From the IMG/VR virus record IMGVR_UViG_3300042922_000286, positions 64,001 to 124,689 of that record: a stretch of 60,689 nucleotides of DNA; one strand, written 5' to 3'. Shown here one piece after another: positions 16,439-57,649 of this stretch (within the stretch, counting starts at the first letter, position 1; each line of letters opens with the position of its first letter). This stretch comes from a virus. Lineage: Duplodnaviria > Heunggongvirae > Uroviricota > Caudoviricetes. The translations under genes were made by a program, and so were the position numbers. Below the pieces are notes generated by a model. That model did not search any database. It was not told the origin of the DNA and saw only the letters and a program-made list of their open reading frames with translations.

Positions 16439-16509
16439 TTAACTGGCGCACCATTGTTGCGTATAGGTAATTAGAAGGACACCGTTGAAAAATTTTTTAT
16501 TACAGAAAG

Positions 16510-16526
16510 TATAGGTACTACCTATA
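16510..16526. promoter_or_regulatory. Palindromic operator-like site TATAGGTA-C-TACCTATA
   Basis: Perfect 8-1-8 palindrome in the divergent intergenic gap; related sites at 22523, 25599, 31395 and 57684. Confidence 0.65.
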
Positions 16527-16544
16527 TAGAATGGGATGGTGTGT

Positions 16545-30664: not shown

Positions 30665-31014
30665 CAGCCGCAGATATGGCCTTTTACAGGTGCAAGCCTT
30701 TGTCCTGCACGATTGGTTCATACCCTTTTATCAGCGCTGTTGTTCCTAAGTCATTCAAGCTGAAAACCAACGAGAATCTCAAACATGTCATGGTCATCCT
30801 CAATTTCGAAGGACTCAAGGCGGTCGTAATTGGATGCAGAGATCAAGTAGTCCAATACATACGCGACAGATATGAAGAGGACGTGTACGAAGTGTCCAAC
30901 AGTATTGAGCAAGCCACCGGGTTTGTTACTAAGCATGAATTGCTTAGGTACTACGGTAGCCGGTTCGACGGCGTACGTGCCAATTATTTTAATCTGTATG
31001 ACGGAGGATATTAA
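30661..31014 (+). CDS. Hypothetical protein (117 aa)
   Basis: SD GGAGGT, 4-bp overlap. Confidence 0.55.
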   Translation: MTAADMAFYRCKPLSCTIGSYPFISAVVPKSFKLKTNENLKHVMVILNFEGLKAVVIGCRDQVVQYIRDRYEEDVYEVSNSIEQATGFVTKHELLRYYGSRFDGVRANYFNLYDGGY

Positions 31015-31015
31015 G

Positions 31016-31387
31016 ATGCACCATCTGACAGTTGAATGGGCGACCTTCTTTGGGGAGGTCGCCGCCAACGGCCTCTCGATTAATGGTACTGTGCAGTACG
31101 GTTCTCGGTTTTGCTGTTTGGCGTTTGGCGAGGTCGGAAAGTCCATCATCATGGTAGTGGGTACGCCATCGAGTGTGACAACGTACATTAACGCACACGA
31201 TCACGCAACGCTTGTCTATGGACAGCCAGAGGTACATTGCAAAGGGTTTATTTACGCCTATGAATTGGCGGACCATATGGATTCGTACCGTTGGGAATAC
31301 GACAAGACCTCAATCGGCGTGGTTAACTTGCTGACTAACAAAAACTACATGGTGAGGGAAAAAAGAAAATCTGAGATCGCGGTCTAA
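31016..31387 (+). CDS. Hypothetical protein (123 aa)
   Basis: SD GGAGG before ATG 31016. Confidence 0.55.
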   Translation: MHHLTVEWATFFGEVAANGLSINGTVQYGSRFCCLAFGEVGKSIIMVVGTPSSVTTYINAHDHATLVYGQPEVHCKGFIYAYELADHMDSYRWEYDKTSIGVVNLLTNKNYMVREKRKSEIAV

Positions 31388-31394
31388 ACAATGG

Positions 31395-31417
31395 TATAGG
31401 TACCACGTATATAGAAT
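31395..31417 (+). promoter_or_regulatory. Operator/promoter copy TATAGGTACCACGTATATAGAAT
   Basis: Near-identical to 16510-16532; lies upstream of the GGCT-amidoligase block. Confidence 0.55.
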
Positions 31418-31444
31418 GTGAAGGACGAAATAGGAGGCGGCACC

Positions 31445-31618
31445 ATGTTGGATAACATTACAGGTACTTGGTGGTTTAATACGATCGGCTTGGTCCTTTT
31501 CATATTTGCCATCGGTGTCCCCTTAAAGTACTTGATCTTCGGTTACACAGAAGTTGAATACGTGACGGAGATCGAAGTTCTTGTAGAAAGAAAGGTTGGT
31601 GTAGCTAATGCCTCGTAA
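31445..31618 (+). CDS. Small membrane protein (57 aa)
   Basis: SD AGGAGG; one hydrophobic helix. Confidence 0.55.
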   Translation: MLDNITGTWWFNTIGLVLFIFAIGVPLKYLIFGYTEVEYVTEIEVLVERKVGVANAS

Positions 31619-32081
31619 GAGAGCAAAACTCAACTCTCGGCGGGTGCCTCGGTCCTACTATCAGGACGAGGACTTTCAGGAATACTTGCCAGCCTTCGTG
31701 TACGGGACGTTACGGGTAGGCTTCGGCAACTATCGTTCGCTGCTACAAGGAAATGTGGATCAGATCGTCCCCGGTTCTGTTCGCGGAATCATACATGCAG
31801 TAATGGGTAACAGAGGCTTCCCTTGCCTATTCGATGAGGAAGGTACTGTAAAGGGCGAATTGATGTATATAAAGCGCGATCGCTACATAGAGGTTATGTT
31901 CGATCTGGACATGTTGGAAGGCAATGGCTTTATGTACCAACGACGCAAAACAACGGTAACAACCGAAAACGGCGAATCTGTTACTGCTTGGGCTTATTAC
32001 TGGATGGGCAGCAAGAGACAGATAGGACTGTTCATTCGAAGCGGCGACTGGAAAGCACATGTCATTGCACAGCAAGGGTAA
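31608..32081 (+). CDS. Gamma-glutamylcyclotransferase (AIG2-like) family protein
   Basis: FVYGTLR.G..N, VKGEL, LDMLEG...YQR, AWAY. Confidence 0.88.
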   Translation: MPRKRAKLNSRRVPRSYYQDEDFQEYLPAFVYGTLRVGFGNYRSLLQGNVDQIVPGSVRGIIHAVMGNRGFPCLFDEEGTVKGELMYIKRDRYIEVMFDLDMLEGNGFMYQRRKTTVTTENGESVTAWAYYWMGSKRQIGLFIRSGDWKAHVIAQQG

Positions 32082-32191
32082 TGACAAATACTGAAAAAGT
32101 TTGAGATCTGCTTACAGCCTATCGTTTGTGAGGATAGGTTGTTGGGAGTACTCAAACTCCAACAATACCATCGAGTAGGAGTTGATAGGAA

Positions 32192-33493
32192 ATGCCCGCA
32201 ATAACAAACTCTGTTGTGGGGGTAGTGACCTGCACTTGCGGCGTAGAAGTCGATAGGTCACATACGCTTATTGTACGGCGGGAAAGTAGGGAAAGTCATG
32301 TGTGCTTTACATGCTTACTGCACGACTACGTACCCTGCTCTTGTGGTTCTATGGTAGTGCGTTCGGAAGCCGTTATACATGACGGTGAATCGTACTGCCC
32401 TGAATGCTCCCGTAACCACTTCTTTCTTAGTATTCATGACCGACGCCAACGTTATCATCGTTCGCGGCTGGTTGAGGACAGCTATGGTAATTTCTTACTA
32501 TCCTCCTTGCTTGAAGGCGATCCGCCCGAATATGTTCGGTGCGAGGCATCTGGTCACTTTGTACCACATGTGGATGCTGTATTCAGAGAAAACAAGTACT
32601 ACCATCCAAGTCATGTACCGGTACGCCATAAGGTTCACCGCTACAGTCACAAGCCTGAACCTATCTTCCACGGCAGCAAACATGATCATTTGAAGATCGG
32701 CTTGGAGTTGGAGATCGAGCGCGGTGGGTACGATAACAGGGTGTGTGATAAGATACTAGAAATTGTACACCCTGAGGGTGTGATTGACGCCGATTCAATC
32801 ATGTATGGTAAGACGGACTCATCTATTAACAATGGCTTTGAGATTGTTACCCATCCTTGCACGTTCGCCTTTCACATGCAAAATATCCCTTGGGGTGCAT
32901 TACTTCAAAAGGCAGAGGAGCTAAGTTTCAATCCCAACCCAACCAGTTGTGGCCTTCACCTCCACTTGTCTCGCAGGTATTGGGGACAGTCAGAGACACG
33001 GCAAGATGTTGGTATCATGAAACTCCTATTCTTGGTTGAGCGCTATTGGGACAAACTTTTGAAATTCTCCCGCCGCACTCAAGAGCAGGTAGATCGATGG
33101 GCAAGCCGATACGGTATGCGGAACACTCCAAAGGAGATTCTGGACTATGCCAAGAGCGGGCAAGGCAGGTACAAGGCGGTCAACTTGGAAAATCCACATA
33201 CGGTCGAATTGAGACTGTTCCGTGGTACTCTTGACCCTAAAGTACTGCGGGCAACTATCCAGTTGTGCTTTGTCCTTGCTCAGGTGAGTAAGGGAACCAC
33301 GGTGGAGGGCATAGTGGCACTTACTTGGAATGACCTGTGTGAAAAATTTCACGATCACAGCGAATTGTGGGATTACCTTGGGGATCTTGGTCTTCAACGG
33401 GAGTTGAGCCGGGAAGAACAAAGGGTAGCGGACGATCAATACTTGGTATCCCAAATCGTTAACTCAGTAATTCCTGCCCCTGCCTACTTCTAG
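32192..33493 (+). CDS. Amidoligase (glutamine-synthetase-like COOH-NH2 ligase) with N-terminal Zn-ribbons, paralog 1
   Basis: IGLELEIE, DSSINNGFEIVTHP, CGLHLHLS, RYKAVNL, VELRLFRGTL. Confidence 0.82.
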   Translation: MPAITNSVVGVVTCTCGVEVDRSHTLIVRRESRESHVCFTCLLHDYVPCSCGSMVVRSEAVIHDGESYCPECSRNHFFLSIHDRRQRYHRSRLVEDSYGNFLLSSLLEGDPPEYVRCEASGHFVPHVDAVFRENKYYHPSHVPVRHKVHRYSHKPEPIFHGSKHDHLKIGLELEIERGGYDNRVCDKILEIVHPEGVIDADSIMYGKTDSSINNGFEIVTHPCTFAFHMQNIPWGALLQKAEELSFNPNPTSCGLHLHLSRRYWGQSETRQDVGIMKLLFLVERYWDKLLKFSRRTQEQVDRWASRYGMRNTPKEILDYAKSGQGRYKAVNLENPHTVELRLFRGTLDPKVLRATIQLCFVLAQVSKGTTVEGIVALTWNDLCEKFHDHSELWDYLGDLGLQRELSREEQRVADDQYLVSQIVNSVIPAPAYF

Positions 33494-33614
33494 TAGAGTC
33501 GAGCAGAGCAGAGCTAAGAGAGAAATGTTAGAGCTGTCATAGAGGCACATCCATCCTTGGGTGAGCTTATTCGGAATGCCAAAAAAATGCCTATGAGCAA
33601 AGGAGACATATCAA

Positions 33615-34817
33615 ATGTGCGGATTATACGGAGTTATTCAATACGGTAAAGGTAATGCAAGCAAGGTCGCCAACGTGAAGGTACTGGTAGAGAAGTTGGC
33701 ACATGGGGCGGCTGTTCGGGGTACTCACGCTACGGGTATCGCCTACGTAAATACCAAGAAGGACATGGTTATCGACAAGGCACCTGAGGCGTCTTACCGA
33801 TTCAACGGTTACAACAAGATTCCTGCTGCCTCCCGTACGATTATGGGTCACACCCGCCACACTACGCAAGGCTCCGAGAAGAAAAATTACAACAACCATC
33901 CGTTCCTTGGCTTGGCGGGCAACAAACCGTTCGCCTTCGCCCATAACGGGGTGCTCGATAACGATAATGAACTTCAACGGACATGGAACCTGCCTGAAAC
34001 GAAGATCGAAACTGACTCCTTCGTAGGGGTGCAGTTGATCGAGAAGCAAGGCAAGCTGAACATGGAGTCGGTTAAATGGATGGCCGAGCAAGTTGAAGGC
34101 ATGTTCTGCTTCACCATCGTTGACCACAAGCAGCAGTTATGGGTTATCAAGAACGACTCGCCTATGAACATTGTTCATTTGAAGAGTATGGAAATGTACG
34201 TGTACGCTTCGACGGCGGACATTCTCCACGAAGCGCTGCTTGGTTTCACGCCGACACGCTCCTTAGTACTAGACATCCTGCGTGGTAGAAAACAAGCTGC
34301 CGACGAAATCGAGTACATCGAGCCTGTGGCGGGCGACATCCTGCTCTTTAAGCAAGACGGGACAATTGAGAAGGAGCGCTTCTCTCCGCAAGAGCGTTTC
34401 AGCAAGTACCAAAATCGCTGGCTGAAACAGCAAGCGAATGGCGGCGCGACAACAGTATCGAGCTTCGATTCTGACGACTGGTACTACAGTACCTCGGGAA
34501 ACTACAGTCGGGGGCATGGAACATATGGGACTAGATATAGTACCACCACATCCATTGCCTCCGTGACGACGCAGAACCGGGTTGCTGCTTTGACTGACGG
34601 CAGCACCAAGGAGGGGCAGAAAAGTAATAACGCCTCTTGGTACGGCGACTATCTCAAGGGATATGCACACTCCCTCGGTCACGCTGATGAAATCATTGAC
34701 CAACTTCGTGAAAAGGGCGCTCAGTTCGACGAAATAGAGGATGCTCTGTATATGAACGATCTCGAAACCCTCTGCACGACCTTTGAAGTACCTATGACGA
34801 ACACTATCGTGTTATAG
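33615..34817 (+). CDS. Class II (Ntn) glutamine amidotransferase with a low-complexity C-terminal extension
   Basis: MCG N-terminal Cys, RGTHATG, GHTRHTT, NNHPF, AHNGVL, TDS. Confidence 0.9.
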   Translation: MCGLYGVIQYGKGNASKVANVKVLVEKLAHGAAVRGTHATGIAYVNTKKDMVIDKAPEASYRFNGYNKIPAASRTIMGHTRHTTQGSEKKNYNNHPFLGLAGNKPFAFAHNGVLDNDNELQRTWNLPETKIETDSFVGVQLIEKQGKLNMESVKWMAEQVEGMFCFTIVDHKQQLWVIKNDSPMNIVHLKSMEMYVYASTADILHEALLGFTPTRSLVLDILRGRKQAADEIEYIEPVAGDILLFKQDGTIEKERFSPQERFSKYQNRWLKQQANGGATTVSSFDSDDWYYSTSGNYSRGHGTYGTRYSTTTSIASVTTQNRVAALTDGSTKEGQKSNNASWYGDYLKGYAHSLGHADEIIDQLREKGAQFDEIEDALYMNDLETLCTTFEVPMTNTIVL

Positions 34818-34901
34818 GTTGCTAGGGTGTCTGACCTTAACGGGTCAGGCACTCCCATGGAGCCTATAACTCCGCTAATACCTTTGAGTAGGAGGCTGGC
34901 T

Positions 34902-36266
34902 ATGTGCCAAGAAAACGAACAACTTGACCTTGCTTCGGACGAAGAAGAGGTGGAGATGGTCGTGTGCGAAAGTTGCGGTGAAGACGTACCTGAAGAAGAC
35001 GCCAACGAGTGCGAGGGTGCTCACTACTGCGATTCCTGCCACGACGAAGTGACCGAAGAATGTGTAGGGTGCGATACTCTTTTCATTCGCGACAACATGC
35101 GTGCAGTGAATAATGACCATTTCTGTACATCCTGTCACGACGCTACCGTTGTTGAGTGCGAACAATGTGGCTGCGAACGTCATGAAAATGAGATGACCGT
35201 GGCAAGTAACGATGCGTATTTCTGCTCCACCTGCGCTAATCGGTGTGTGGTGGAATGTGATCGCTGTCATAACGATTTCCACGTAGATGACGTGCAAACC
35301 GATACTTCGAACAACACTATATGCAATACATGCTTTGAAAGGCACTGCTATCGTCGGTGCGCGGACTGCAATACCATATTACGTCCCCTCGATCAGAATT
35401 ATAGGGAACATACCGATGCCCACTACTGCGATGAATGTGACCCGGGCGAGCCCGCCATTATTTTGGATTACAGTCACAAGCCTTCACCTATCTTCCATAC
35501 CTTCGAGAACGACAGCGACCATGATCTGTTCCTTGGTGTGGAGATCGAAATGGACGGGGCAGGGTGCAACGTAGAGAACGCGGAGAAGCTTTACGAGATT
35601 GCTAACAAGCGCCAAGGCGAACACGATCACATCTACATCAAGCAAGACGGGTCGATTTGCCACGGATTCGAGGTAGTCTCCCATCCTTGCACTCTTCAAT
35701 ATCATATGGAGTGTTTCGCTTGGAAGGATGTACTGCGCGAGGCGGTTCAGATGGGGTACCGTTCCCATCAAGTTGATACTTGTGGTCTGCACGTCCACGT
35801 ATCACGCCAATTCTTCGGCAGTCCTGATGACGGTACGCAAGACTTGAATGTTATGAAGTTCTTATATTTCATCGAGAAGTTTTGGGAACAAATCAAGAAG
35901 TTTTCCCGCCGCACCAACGATCAAATAAGTTCTTGGGCCAATCGTTACGGGTTACGTGACGGTGAAACACCAGAGCAGCTACTCAACAAAGCGAAGAACG
36001 ATCGGGCGCGATACCGGGCAGTTAACCTCACGGTATCCAAGACTGTTGAAGTTCGCATCTTCCGCGGCACATTGAAGTACAACACCTTCATAGCAACCAT
36101 TCAATTTGTTGCCCTGCTTGCTAGATTTAGTAAGCAATGCGCGGTTGATGACGTTATGGCGGTCACATGGGAACAGTTGGTTGCCGCGGGTTCGGAGTTC
36201 ACTGAGCTTCAAACATACCTGCAAGAGCGCGGATTAGGAGGGTTGGCAAATGGCAACGAGGGTTAA
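34902..36266 (+). CDS. Amidoligase with five tandem paired-CxxC repeats, paralog 2
   Basis: SD AGGAGG before ATG 34902; ten CxxC; LGVEIEMD, DGSICHGFEVVSHP, CGLHVHVS, RYRAVNL, VEVRIFRGTL. Confidence 0.82.
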   Translation: MCQENEQLDLASDEEEVEMVVCESCGEDVPEEDANECEGAHYCDSCHDEVTEECVGCDTLFIRDNMRAVNNDHFCTSCHDATVVECEQCGCERHENEMTVASNDAYFCSTCANRCVVECDRCHNDFHVDDVQTDTSNNTICNTCFERHCYRRCADCNTILRPLDQNYREHTDAHYCDECDPGEPAIILDYSHKPSPIFHTFENDSDHDLFLGVEIEMDGAGCNVENAEKLYEIANKRQGEHDHIYIKQDGSICHGFEVVSHPCTLQYHMECFAWKDVLREAVQMGYRSHQVDTCGLHVHVSRQFFGSPDDGTQDLNVMKFLYFIEKFWEQIKKFSRRTNDQISSWANRYGLRDGETPEQLLNKAKNDRARYRAVNLTVSKTVEVRIFRGTLKYNTFIATIQFVALLARFSKQCAVDDVMAVTWEQLVAAGSEFTELQTYLQERGLGGLANGNEG

Positions 36267-37456: not shown

Positions 37457-38071
37457 ATGTCAATAGTACCCGGTTTAAGAGTTCGAGTCCGCACCGATCT
37501 TCGTTATGGGGAAACCAACCATGAGGGGGTCCCTTATGGGGTGAATGTCGCGGACGAAATGATTACCGATTTTGCGGGCAGGTACGTTACTGTTGTATCG
37601 CGGCTGGAGAGGGAATCACAGGGTCAGCAGTTATTTCGCATCAAAGAAGACCGTGGTGTATATACGTGGTCAACGCTCATGGTCGATGACGGTACTGCCC
37701 CTCCCGCCTTAATAATAAGTGAACCGCCAAGAGTCAGTCCTGACTTTCTTGAGAAAGTGTACAGGGACACGAATGTTGTACCTATACAACAGGCATATTT
37801 TGATGAAGTAGGCGGACGTCAAGGGGCTGACGGTCTGTCAGCAATCATGCTTGCGTTCGGGTTCACTAAAGACGACAGGCATGAAACATTTACAAAAATG
37901 TTCTGGACTCAGAATTATATTGAAGGCTTTATTAGTGGTTGGGATTCCCCGCCGCCAAGCGAAGAAGAAGCCGAAGAACGTATGGAGGGAAGAACGCCTG
38001 ACTACAAATCAGGGTATTACGATGCATGGAAGTCCATCGAGCACCTGAGACAGGTCGGGCTTCTCCAATAG
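37457..38071 (+). CDS. Hypothetical protein, tandem paralog A (SH3/KOW-like N-terminal domain)
   Basis: Shares LRYGE, FAGR, RIxxDRGxYxW, PDF and GF.xG.D features with the next two genes. Confidence 0.65.
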   Translation: MSIVPGLRVRVRTDLRYGETNHEGVPYGVNVADEMITDFAGRYVTVVSRLERESQGQQLFRIKEDRGVYTWSTLMVDDGTAPPALIISEPPRVSPDFLEKVYRDTNVVPIQQAYFDEVGGRQGADGLSAIMLAFGFTKDDRHETFTKMFWTQNYIEGFISGWDSPPPSEEEAEERMEGRTPDYKSGYYDAWKSIEHLRQVGLLQ

Positions 38072-38083
38072 GGGTGATTTACA

Positions 38084-38731
38084 ATGAGGTCTGAAATGAA
38101 ACATATGCCTATCAATCCTATCTTTCAGGTAGGGGATGTTGCGGTAATGTCCTCCAAGCTGCGGTATGGTGAGATGTATGGCGAAGTGATCTGTACGACT
38201 AGCTTATTTACCCGATTCGCGGGTAGAGAGATAAGAATTAAAGAAGTAAGGAAAGGGATGTTTGACGAATTTGTGTATTATGTAGCCAAGCTACCTCCCG
38301 CCGCTGTAGGCGATGTAGTGCGAGAAGCCCTTATTGCAGAATCAATGCTTTTAGGTACACGTAAGAAGGTTTTTCAGAACAGAATAGAACCTGATTTCGT
38401 TATTAAATGCTACGAGCAGTTAGGTTTATATAGCGTTTGTTCTGGTCAATTCTTCAGTTCAGCCGGGGCTGCTGATCCGTTGGGTGCCATCTACTTAGCT
38501 TTTGGCGGCGAAGATCGGAATGCCGAGTCTGTGAAGTCAACTCTCGTTAAGCTGTACGATAAGGACTACCTGCGCGGATTTACTGTCGGATTCGACAGAC
38601 GTGGGTCTAATTACGCACCGACTGGGTACTATTGGGACGGTCACAGTGATGGCTCTGCTGTTCGTTACGCTATTGAATCATGGGCCGCTAGAAGGGCACC
38701 GCGTCCGCGCGTACTAGGTCAAGGAGGGTAG
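38084..38731 (+). CDS. Hypothetical protein, tandem paralog B
   Basis: VGDVAV, LRYGE, FAGR, EPDFVIKCY, LGAIYLAFG, YLRGFTVGFD. Confidence 0.65.
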   Translation: MRSEMKHMPINPIFQVGDVAVMSSKLRYGEMYGEVICTTSLFTRFAGREIRIKEVRKGMFDEFVYYVAKLPPAAVGDVVREALIAESMLLGTRKKVFQNRIEPDFVIKCYEQLGLYSVCSGQFFSSAGAADPLGAIYLAFGGEDRNAESVKSTLVKLYDKDYLRGFTVGFDRRGSNYAPTGYYWDGHSDGSAVRYAIESWAARRAPRPRVLGQGG

Positions 38732-38737
38732 AGGGCA

Positions 38738-39355
38738 ATGTACAATATAGGCGACTGTGTGGTAATCGACCTTAACTTAGGAGTACAACAGAGGTCGGAG
38801 ATTCGTCAATACAATCACTTCTATGATTCAGATATGCAGCTTTACCGTGGGTTAACGGCGACCATTCAAGACAGAATGGTGCTGCCAAACAATACTTACT
38901 ACCGGATTGATGTTGACCGTGGGGAGTACAAATGGACGGCAGAGAGCTTTACCCCCGCCCGCTTGCAGCACCCGCCTGTCGCGCACAGTACTCTTCGACT
39001 TACTATTGATGAGGTCGTCTTGTACATCGAGCGCACAGGTCTTGTTCCTGTGATTACTTATGATCCTTATGTTTTTATAGACAATGATAAAGTAGGAGCA
39101 AACCTTGTGGGACTGGTTGATTGCGCGGCCATGGGCGGTGACCCTCATCGTTTTTTCCAAGAGCACTATGACCCGAGGCGAAGTTTGCATCTTTTCTATT
39201 CTTCCTACTACGTTATTGGCTTAAACGAAGGATTTCAGGAAGACAGAGGAACCTACCGGGGCAACGAGGAAAGGAATTTAGGAAGGCAAGACGGTTCTGC
39301 CATACGGCGGCACCTTATCAATACAAACCTTATGGAAAGAAGGGATTGGTTCTAA
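38738..39355 (+). CDS. Hypothetical protein, tandem paralog C
   Basis: IGDCVVI, YRIDVDRGEYKW, GRQDGSAIR. Confidence 0.65.
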   Translation: MYNIGDCVVIDLNLGVQQRSEIRQYNHFYDSDMQLYRGLTATIQDRMVLPNNTYYRIDVDRGEYKWTAESFTPARLQHPPVAHSTLRLTIDEVVLYIERTGLVPVITYDPYVFIDNDKVGANLVGLVDCAAMGGDPHRFFQEHYDPRRSLHLFYSSYYVIGLNEGFQEDRGTYRGNEERNLGRQDGSAIRRHLINTNLMERRDWF

Positions 39356-57398: not shown

Positions 57399-57429
57399 AC
57401 AAATCGTCCCACTATTCTTAAAATTTTTT

Positions 57430-57642
57430 TGTCTTAATATGTCATAACTATTCATAACACTTCACAACTATTAATAACATGTAATAAATGTTGTGACATC
57501 TTATTAACTTTTGTCCTAACTTGTCATAACATTTGTCTTAACTCGTCATAATTCTTGTGACACTGTAATAACACTTCATAATTCTTGAGACTTATTCACA
57601 ACATTTATGAAGTTGTATGAAGTTGTCAGAAGATGTCATAAC
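57430..57642. repeat. Centromere-like (parC) array of ~10-bp repeats
   Basis: TGTCATAAC exact at 57440, 57522 and 57634, plus many variants in 10-bp register (ATGTCATAAC TATTCATAAC ACTTCACAAC TATTAATAAC ATGTAATAAA) and inverted copies. Confidence 0.8.
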
Positions 57643-57649
57643 TTTTTTC

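Follow-up and report, generated by a model that had tools for sequence, protein, structure and literature searches.

A reduced, ligase-duplicated variant of the phage amidoligase cassette in a Jenst-like phage of Bacillales

The combination of an amidoligase, a class II glutamine amidotransferase (GATase-II), a gamma-glutamylcyclotransferase (GGCT), an ATP-grasp ligase, and a second type of ligase is reportedly the subject of a computational description by Iyer, Abhiman, Burroughs, and Aravind in 2009 (Mol Biosyst 5:1636). Here, we analyze a cluster of this kind at positions 31608 to 36266 of a 60,689-nucleotide (nt) stretch of viral DNA, the window, which comprises bases 64001 to 124689 of the 124,689-bp virus record IMGVR_UViG_3300042922_000286 and to which all coordinates refer unless prefixed. 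A passage of PMC5498523 describes the phage amidoligase cassette of Iyer et al., and its versions in phiEco32, LUZ24, PaP3, tf, RIO-1, and PSA-HP1 are routinely annotated as "peptidoglycan modification" or superinfection exclusion (PMC5498523, PMC10580990, PMC11318856). In tables of Clostridium clostridioforme prophages, two amidoligases are listed with a cyclotransferase two open reading frames (ORFs) apart (PMC11318856). The original prediction for this DNA, made from its letters alone, had stated that no product of such a cassette has been shown, and in the literature up to 2026 we likewise found no paper reporting an activity, a product, or an experimental function of the cassette or of the ligase subfamily treated here. 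The window cluster is a reduced, ligase-duplicated variant of the phiEco32/LUZ24 amidoligase cassette and adds no new kind of system, the cassette having been known from computation since 2009. The comparison presented below points to a two-gene pair of ligase and amidotransferase, rather than to the larger cassette, as the unit, and to zinc fingers as the likely specificity element.

The cluster is a single block filled by four co-directional ORFs, which encode a cyclotransferase, a first ligase (ligase 1), an amidotransferase, and a second ligase (ligase 2) (Table 1). These had been predicted to be a GGCT, an amidoligase, a class II GATase, and a second amidoligase, adjacent and with intact catalytic motifs, and the ORFs, the Pfam matches (above the curated cut-offs for all four proteins), the concurring PHROGs assignments, and the invariant catalytic columns described below all agree. 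As in the phiEco32/LUZ24 cassette, the gene directly after that of an Amidoligase_2 ligase encodes a class II amidotransferase (gp18 and gp19 in LUZ24, ligase 1 and the amidotransferase in the window), and a GGACT-type cyclotransferase lies in the same block (gp22 in LUZ24). The window amidotransferase and cyclotransferase are clearly homologous to gp19 and gp22, which profiles built from the window proteins match with E values of 2e-19 and 3e-14, respectively. The window phage differs from this cassette, however, in having no RimK-like ATP-grasp ligase, as had been predicted from the cluster itself: across the complete 124,689-bp genome, neither PF08443 nor PF13535 has a match at an E value of ≤1, and a tblastn search with LUZ24 gp21 came back empty. 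It also lacks the phiEco32-type COOH-NH2 ligase (no match to PF14395 in the genome at an E value of ≤1), its second ligase being instead a paralogue of the first. In contrast to LUZ24, the window ligases belong to the phrog_16683 subfamily, carry zinc-finger arrays, and are duplicated, and neither BLAST nor profile comparison gave a significant match between them and LUZ24 gp16 or gp18. The carriers differ as well, with a 125-kb Jenst-like phage of Bacillales here and podophages of Gram-negative bacteria for the LUZ24 type. A second set of described relatives comprises elements of Clostridia and the gp105-gp106 pair of mycobacteriophage Marvin, which have the same ligase subfamily (identity of ∼40% across the catalytic domain and two to three zinc modules) and, immediately downstream, the same amidotransferase, including its small C-terminal helical domain, although those loci hold one ligase and no cyclotransferase.

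The ligase-amidotransferase pair across phages and mobile elements

Our survey comprised 80 viral and 80 genomic loci fetched by a ligase profile search, a single-sequence ligase search of viral contigs having returned nothing, and the ORFs of these loci were searched with iterated profiles of the window's amidotransferase, cyclotransferase, and ligase. Counting only intact loci, into which no contig end cuts, we find the amidotransferase gene as the next one downstream of the ligase gene in 73 of 74 genomic (bacterial) loci and in 58 of 76 viral loci; in three more of the latter, it is found nearby. The ligase stop and the amidotransferase start are separated by a median of 2 nt, with frequent overlaps, and the same gene order is seen in LUZ24, in Marvin, and in loci L005, L007, and L013. 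Taken together, these gene neighborhoods suggest that the ligase followed by its amidotransferase is a conserved functional unit across phages and integrative or mobilizable elements. In a set of 5.8 billion proteins, more than 1,000 ligase homologues, mostly from gut Clostridia, pass the E-value threshold, and more than 3,900 amidotransferase homologues also passed it. As gene pairs of unknown function go, this module is one of the more widespread in phages and integrative elements. According to the literature, the pair also occurs in viruses assigned to archaea and in phages that infect Pseudomonas, Vibrio, Mycobacterium, and OM43 (PMC10580990, PMC11706807, PMC5498523), and so broad a range of hosts argues for a target that is widely shared.

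The cyclotransferase follows a different pattern. Of the 160 surveyed loci, a single one, L016, has it; beyond the survey, it occurs in L006, L176, and L177. Because few loci have it while the ligase-amidotransferase pair is near-universal, we regard it as an accessory, rare add-on. The exact order of cyclotransferase, ligase, amidotransferase, and ligase recurs in L006, L176, and L177, which are syntenic relatives of the window (over at least 14 kb in the case of L006) and whose amidotransferases are 55 to 63% identical to that of the window. The same four genes in the same order, with spacers, are also found in L016, a 166-kb phage contig that has nothing else in common with the window. The original prediction had placed the cluster in an uncharacterized amidoligase/GATase-II/GGCT neighborhood of phages and mobile elements; this neighborhood does recur in both, and the genes co-occur in other genomes, namely, in L006, L016, L176, L177, and the survey loci.

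The surroundings of the pair depend on the carrier. In phage loci, it sits amid genes of unknown function or close to one end of the record. In Clostridia, it lies within integrative or mobilizable elements, where DUF960 usually comes first, then the ligase and the amidotransferase, then DUF1643 or DUF3846, and last a serine recombinase/integrase, with relaxase genes nearby. None of these companions (DUF960, DUF1643/DUF3846, serine recombinase/integrase, relaxase) was found in the window phage. The DUF960 protein (∼94 amino acids [aa]) is encoded directly 5′ of the ligase gene in 69 of the 160 loci of the survey (52 of the 69 being genomic) and in L005 (examples are L017:3641-3922 and L005:3416-3700), and its C terminus is -EY, mostly as -EEY, in 52 of 53 distinct sequences. 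Such an end could mark DUF960 as a substrate or tag of the ligase, but the protein, which is missing from the window phage, may also be no more than a companion of staphylococcal cassette chromosome (SCC)-type serine recombinases, which it usually accompanies according to the literature.

Domains and duplication of the cluster proteins

Ligases 1 and 2 match PF12224 with E values of 9.6e-9 (35.9 bits) and 2.5e-10 (41.1 bits), respectively, against a cut-off of 22, and match phrog_16683 with E values of 6e-57 and 1.2e-76. The latter is a family of unknown function, and the general phage "amidoligase" family, phrog_2443, matches the ligases weakly. In an alignment of 25 homologues, both window copies among them, the ExE, HxH, and R/ExR columns are invariant (E239/E241, E282, H322/H324, R361/R362, E408, and R410), and R413 is nearly so. 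A sequence search of solved structures returned none for the catalytic domain. In the AlphaFold2 (AF2) model of ligase 2, which has a mean predicted local distance difference test score (pLDDT) of 83.8, residues 44 to 200 form five repeats of a zinc-knuckle hairpin and a helix, and the C-terminal 270 residues form an alpha/beta domain. The best Foldseek matches of this model are YbdK/GCS2 (1TT4, 1R8G), glutamine synthetases, Dop/PafA, and glutamate-cysteine ligase, the top ones with a probability of 1.0 at 9 to 13% identity. Judging from this model, the two proteins are glutamine-synthetase-fold enzymes and are predicted to be ATP-dependent carboxylate-amine ligases. The closest solved folds to the catalytic domain are thus those of PafA/Dop and YbdK/GCS2. 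PafA acts on protein-borne glutamate, and Dop interconverts Gln and Glu at a protein terminus. Unlike the window ligases, however, PafA, Dop, and YbdK have neither a zinc-finger N terminus nor an obligatory amidotransferase neighbor. Their sequence identity to the ligase is low, at 10 to 13%, and we saw nothing like a Pup gene in the cluster.

The N-terminal regions of the two ligases are strongly different. That of ligase 2 has ten CxxC pairs between residues 47 and 204, and that of ligase 1 has four CxxC/CxC pairs, the remainder being degenerate; five and two zinc modules, respectively, are of high confidence. The ligase family profile matches LIM domains in the PDB (E value, ∼1e-3), some ligase homologues carry Pfam LIM or double-zinc-ribbon domains, and both window ligases are without a signal peptide.

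Over 397 aligned residues, ligases 1 and 2 are 34% identical. We placed them in a maximum likelihood tree of 49 catalytic domains, in which ligase 1 forms a clade with the first ligases of L006, L175, L176, and L177 (support, 100/99), a clade that itself branches from within the second ligases of these phages (95/99). The topology suggests that the two window ligases are recent paralogues of one subfamily. In L016, L089, L071, L142, and L055/L061, too, the two ligases of a locus are each other's closest kin, with starred support. Because the tree pairs copies within loci, tandem duplication of the ligase with retention of one amidotransferase must have taken place independently at least six times. 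The original prediction had offered two steps or two targets as the meaning of the second ligase. Given the paralogy, the repeated duplication, and the differing zinc-finger regions, two related targets, or a hetero-oligomer, fit better than two chemistries; of the two options offered, the former therefore loses ground and the latter survives in the form of related targets. In one viral contig, at L089:2587-8564, the whole pair has a tandem repeat, so that ligase and amidotransferase genes alternate, and its two ligases are again mutually closest.

The amidotransferase matches the GATase_6/7/4 families (E value, 3.5e-11). Cys2, Arg81, Asn111-Gly112, and Asp134 are invariant among 26 diverse partner sequences and are, by transfer from GlmS and PurF, presumably the nucleophile, the binder of the alpha-carboxylate, the oxyanion hole, and the binder of the alpha-amino group, respectively; an M-C-[GAS] start is kept in 87 of 145 partner amidotransferases. 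Its AF2 model (pLDDT, 80.9) consists of a glutaminase domain (residues 1 to 275), a disordered Ser/Thr-rich linker (276 to 339), which is an insertion peculiar to the window lineage, and a helical C-terminal domain (340 to 390). The C-terminal domain, with a GYxxxEIEExLY-like motif, is common to all ligase-associated amidotransferases that we aligned; residues 340 to 390 match no known family, and we consider the domain a candidate docking element. All of the top 50 Foldseek matches of the model are PurF and GlmS/GFAT structures (TM score of 0.74 to the isolated GlmS glutaminase domain, 1XFF), and the nearest NCBIfam models are those of GlmS (E value, 7.7e-18) and PurF, at the domain level only, whereas no gamma-glutamyl-hydrolase NCBIfam model matches at an E value of <0.01. 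In sequence and predicted structure, the amidotransferase thus resembles those domains of PurF and GlmS that donate ammonia. A complex prediction for ligase 1 and the amidotransferase, run with separate alignments per chain and no controls, scored 0.02 against a mark of 0.32, which speaks neither for nor against binding.

The cyclotransferase matches PF06094 (GGACT) and phrog_2520 with E values of 4.5e-23 and 5.8e-18, respectively. Aligned with five homologues, LUZ24 gp22 included, it shows the YGTL motif at residues 32 to 35 (Y32, G33, L35) and Glu84 in conserved columns, one sequence having Asp at the Glu position. No solved structure was found for it by sequence search. Enzymes of the GGACT type cleave gamma-glutamyl-amines.

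Chemistry, target, and competing explanations

We propose that the ligase and the amidotransferase would act together as a two-component, glutamine-dependent carboxylate amidase-ligase that is aimed at a macromolecule by zinc fingers, assisted by the cyclotransferase, and used in conflict with the host, a proposal whose chances we judge to be a little short of even. The ligase would phosphorylate a carboxylate with ATP to give an acyl phosphate, an intermediate that, to our knowledge, is common to all glutamine-synthetase-fold ligases, and the amidotransferase would hydrolyze glutamine and supply the ammonia that turns the carboxylate into a carboxamide; the simplest product would be the conversion of a Glu-type side chain or terminus into its Gln-type counterpart. 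The zinc-finger arrays, which differ between the ligases, would choose the macromolecular target, each ligase probably having its own, related one. The cyclotransferase would be an optional aid, disposing of gamma-glutamyl-amine side products or of host conjugates in the form of 5-oxoproline. The role of the system would most likely lie in host takeover, or in conflict with the host or rival elements after entry, rather than in general nitrogen metabolism. We favor two-component amidation because the minimal conserved unit consists of a carboxylate-activating ligase and a glutamine-hydrolyzing subunit, because PurF and GlmS, in their domains that donate ammonia, are what the amidotransferase most resembles, and because a writer placed beside its own eraser would amount to a futile cycle. 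The proposed chemistry resembles that of MurT/GatD, in which an ATP-activated carboxylate receives ammonia from a glutaminase encoded by the adjacent gene (PMC3267633). MurT/GatD, however, combines a Mur-ligase fold with a class I (triad) glutaminase, as opposed to a glutamine-synthetase fold and a class II (N-terminal nucleophile [Ntn]) enzyme here, and the relation is one of analogy, not membership.

Several observations weigh against two-component amidation. About a fifth of the intact viral loci have no detectable amidotransferase beside the ligase. Fusions of the two proteins were found neither among ligase homologues of 263 to 839 aa nor among the 120 best amidotransferase homologues of 220 to 700 aa and the candidates of 701 to 2000 aa. 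Class II amidotransferase-like proteins that stand alone, EgtC for one, act as hydrolases and not as ammonia donors. Every characterized glutamine-synthetase-fold ligase that we know of activates the gamma-carboxylate of glutamate, which fits the gamma-glutamylation of amines equally well. Finally, the cyclotransferase acts on gamma-glutamyl-amines, which are not direct products of amidation.

These points lead to the main rival, which follows Iyer et al. and in which the ligases would attach free L-glutamate via its gamma-carboxyl to amines of a protein, a peptide, or a small molecule, and an EgtC-like amidotransferase together with the cyclotransferase would remove it again, the gamma-glutamyl group serving as a reversible tag or a transient protecting group. 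All structural neighbors of the ligase (glutamine synthetase, YbdK/glutamate-cysteine ligase, and PafA/Dop) act on the glutamate gamma-carboxyl, the amidotransferase keeps the residues that grip the free alpha-amino and alpha-carboxylate groups of a gamma-glutamyl moiety, and a gamma-glutamyl-amine cyclotransferase co-occurs in four related phage contigs, that of the window included, and in one unrelated one. Yet this explanation would make the minimal module a writer in close linkage with its own eraser, no other enzyme standing between them; the sequence models and the top 50 structures for the amidotransferase are PurF and GlmS rather than EgtC or YafJ-type hydrolases, and the cyclotransferase is rare among the surveyed loci; all considered, we find this explanation unlikely. 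A write-and-erase arrangement with the cyclotransferase as an equal partner had been part of the original prediction (with two ligases and an ammonia donor as the writer), and that partnership does not agree with a near-universal pair that the cyclotransferase joins as a rare accessory. The targets put forward in the same prediction (host proteins, peptidoglycan, or nucleotides) are speculative candidates. The usual view in the literature on the phiEco32, RIO-1, and PSA-HP1 cassettes (PMC5498523, PMC10580990, PMC11318856) is a different one, namely, that carboxylates of the peptidoglycan stem peptide are amidated or extended, in the manner of MurT/GatD or AsnB/LtsA, so that the wall is hidden from rival phages and lysins and superinfection is excluded. 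ATP- and glutamine-dependent amidation of D-iso-Glu in lipid II is indeed established for MurT/GatD (PMC3267633). The phage has no ATP-grasp ligase, however, which is central to the peptide-building version; the pair is found in hosts with very different walls and is reported even in viruses assigned to wall-less marine archaea (PMC11706807); and the ligases combine the absence of signal peptides with cytoplasmic zinc-finger arrays suited to the recognition of proteins or nucleic acids. The cytoplasmic arrays and the spread across hosts with differing envelopes disfavor a role in peptidoglycan alone, and we consider peptidoglycan-precursor modification quite improbable.

A nucleic acid or nucleotide could also be the substrate, the pair amidating a carboxylated base, a nucleotide, or an aminoacyl-tRNA, as GatCAB does in converting Glu to Gln, with the zinc fingers binding DNA or RNA. 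GatCAB works through gamma-phosphoryl-Glu and glutamine-derived ammonia, a chemistry that would be feasible for a glutamine-synthetase-fold ligase with an amidotransferase; arrays of zinc ribbons are often nucleic acid binders, and in mobile elements the pair adjoins recombinase and relaxase genes, a setting in which DNA-protecting functions are common. Against this, the zinc modules resemble LIM domains, whose usual binding partners are proteins, and we found beside the cluster no gene for base exchange, for a hydroxymethylase, or for any other hypermodification; we rate modification of nucleic acids as highly improbable. Least credible of all, in our judgment, is the notion of auxiliary metabolic genes that boost the nitrogen or amino acid metabolism of the host, as suggested for Poriferisphaera phage ZRK32. 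Growth stimulation is reported for a phage with amidoligase, GATase, ATP-grasp "glutathione synthase," and GGCT genes, but as an effect of the phage as a whole (PMC10945688). Zinc-finger targeting domains, repeated duplication of the ligase, and a location in mobile elements are atypical of housekeeping nitrogen enzymes, and we saw no orthologues in bacterial core genomes.

Two-component amidation, if taken further, would amount to a new enzyme class, that is, a glutamine-dependent amidotransferase of the glutamine-synthetase fold that acts on specific carboxylates of a host protein or nucleic acid (turning, for instance, Glu into Gln), is directed by interchangeable zinc-finger arrays, and is used by phages and mobile elements on entry to disarm or rewire a widely conserved host component. 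We think this extended version somewhat unlikely; were it true, an arms race over target recognition would have left its trace in the ligase genes, in that they were duplicated repeatedly. The target, if found, could reveal a new modification of proteins or nucleic acids in phage-host conflict.

The carrier phage and the setting of the cluster

The carrier is a complete 124.7-kb Jenst-like phage of Bacillales, whose hosts are spore formers. Its record has a completeness rating of 100%, and the final 135 bases (124555 to 124689 of the record) are identical to the initial 135 (1 to 135), a sign that the assembly is circular or else that the termini carry a short repeat, although in IMG/VR the record is classed as linear. 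Tailed-phage structural genes are present, among them that for a portal protein with ∼50% identity to those of Brevibacillus phages Jenst and SecTim467 and Bacillus phage EZ-2018a. As a tblastn search of 50,697 phage records with ligase 2 returned neither Jenst nor its cultured kin among the matches, the cluster appears to be accessory to the Jenst-like lineage. Megablast of the cluster DNA against the same number of phage records gave zero matches, and none of the PADLOC defense system models matched the four cluster proteins or five neighbors.

Table 1. Positions of the cluster genes and of the elements preceding them
Feature	Position	Strand	Family match or mark
25-nt partly palindromic element, 3′ end TAGAAT; candidate promoter/operator	31394-31418	+	repeat copy
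Putative single-pass membrane protein, 57 aa	31445-31618	+	ATG 31445; frame also open from GTG 31418
GGACT/AIG2-like gamma-glutamyl(amine) cyclotransferase, 157 aa	31608-32081	+	PF06094, phrog_2520
Ligase 1, N-terminal zinc modules and Amidoligase_2, 433 aa	32192-33493	+	PF12224, phrog_16683
Class II (Ntn) glutamine amidotransferase, 400 aa	33615-34817	+	GATase_6/7/4, M-C-G start
Ligase 2, five LIM-like zinc modules and Amidoligase_2, 479 aa	34827-36266	+	PF12224, phrog_16683

The four genes are separated by gaps of 110, 121, and 9 nt, each is preceded by a plausible ribosome-binding site, and the gene that follows overlaps ligase 2 by 17 nt. Ligase 2 may start at the GTG of the table or at an ATG at 34857. 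A scan for promoters and terminators within the cluster yielded nothing exceeding chance and no terminator-like site inside it. The operator copy and the small membrane protein that had been noted ahead of the cluster are both present, and neither extends to the relatives. The 25-nt element (consensus GTATAGGTACNACNTATATAGAATG) has exactly two copies in the 124.7-kb genome, the second, at 16509 to 16533, containing a perfect 8-bp inverted repeat, and both copies precede blocks of plus-strand genes. With this sole second copy, and with its absence from the related loci L006 and L175 to L177 and from L016, the element is real but phage specific and confined to two sites. The 57-aa ORF has an AGGAGG 8 nt 5′ of its ATG and overlaps the start of the cyclotransferase gene by 11 nt, an arrangement that suggests translational coupling. 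Its product, which has no Pfam or PHROG match, contains one hydrophobic helix (mean Kyte-Doolittle value of 2.3 over a 19-residue window). A 66-aa hydrophobic ORF lies directly 5′ of the cyclotransferase gene in L176 but has no BLAST similarity to the 57-aa protein, and L177 and L006 have no counterpart, so the membrane protein is not a conserved member of the cassette.

Just 5′ of the cluster, the gene at 30872 to 31387 has no family match and is kept at or beside the same site ahead of the cyclotransferase gene in L006, L176, and L177 (31 to 34% identity). Farther downstream, the noncoding segment at 57429 to 57646 contains a ∼22- to 24-nt repeat (TTGTCnTAAnnnGTCATAAC-like) in four to six arrayed copies, and this array could be an origin, a partition site, or a set of binding sites. 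Three tandem paralogous genes at 37457 to 39355 encode proteins of 204, 215, and 205 aa with no Pfam or PHROG match, and this trio is also kept as a set in the related contig L006 (L006:10530-11747).

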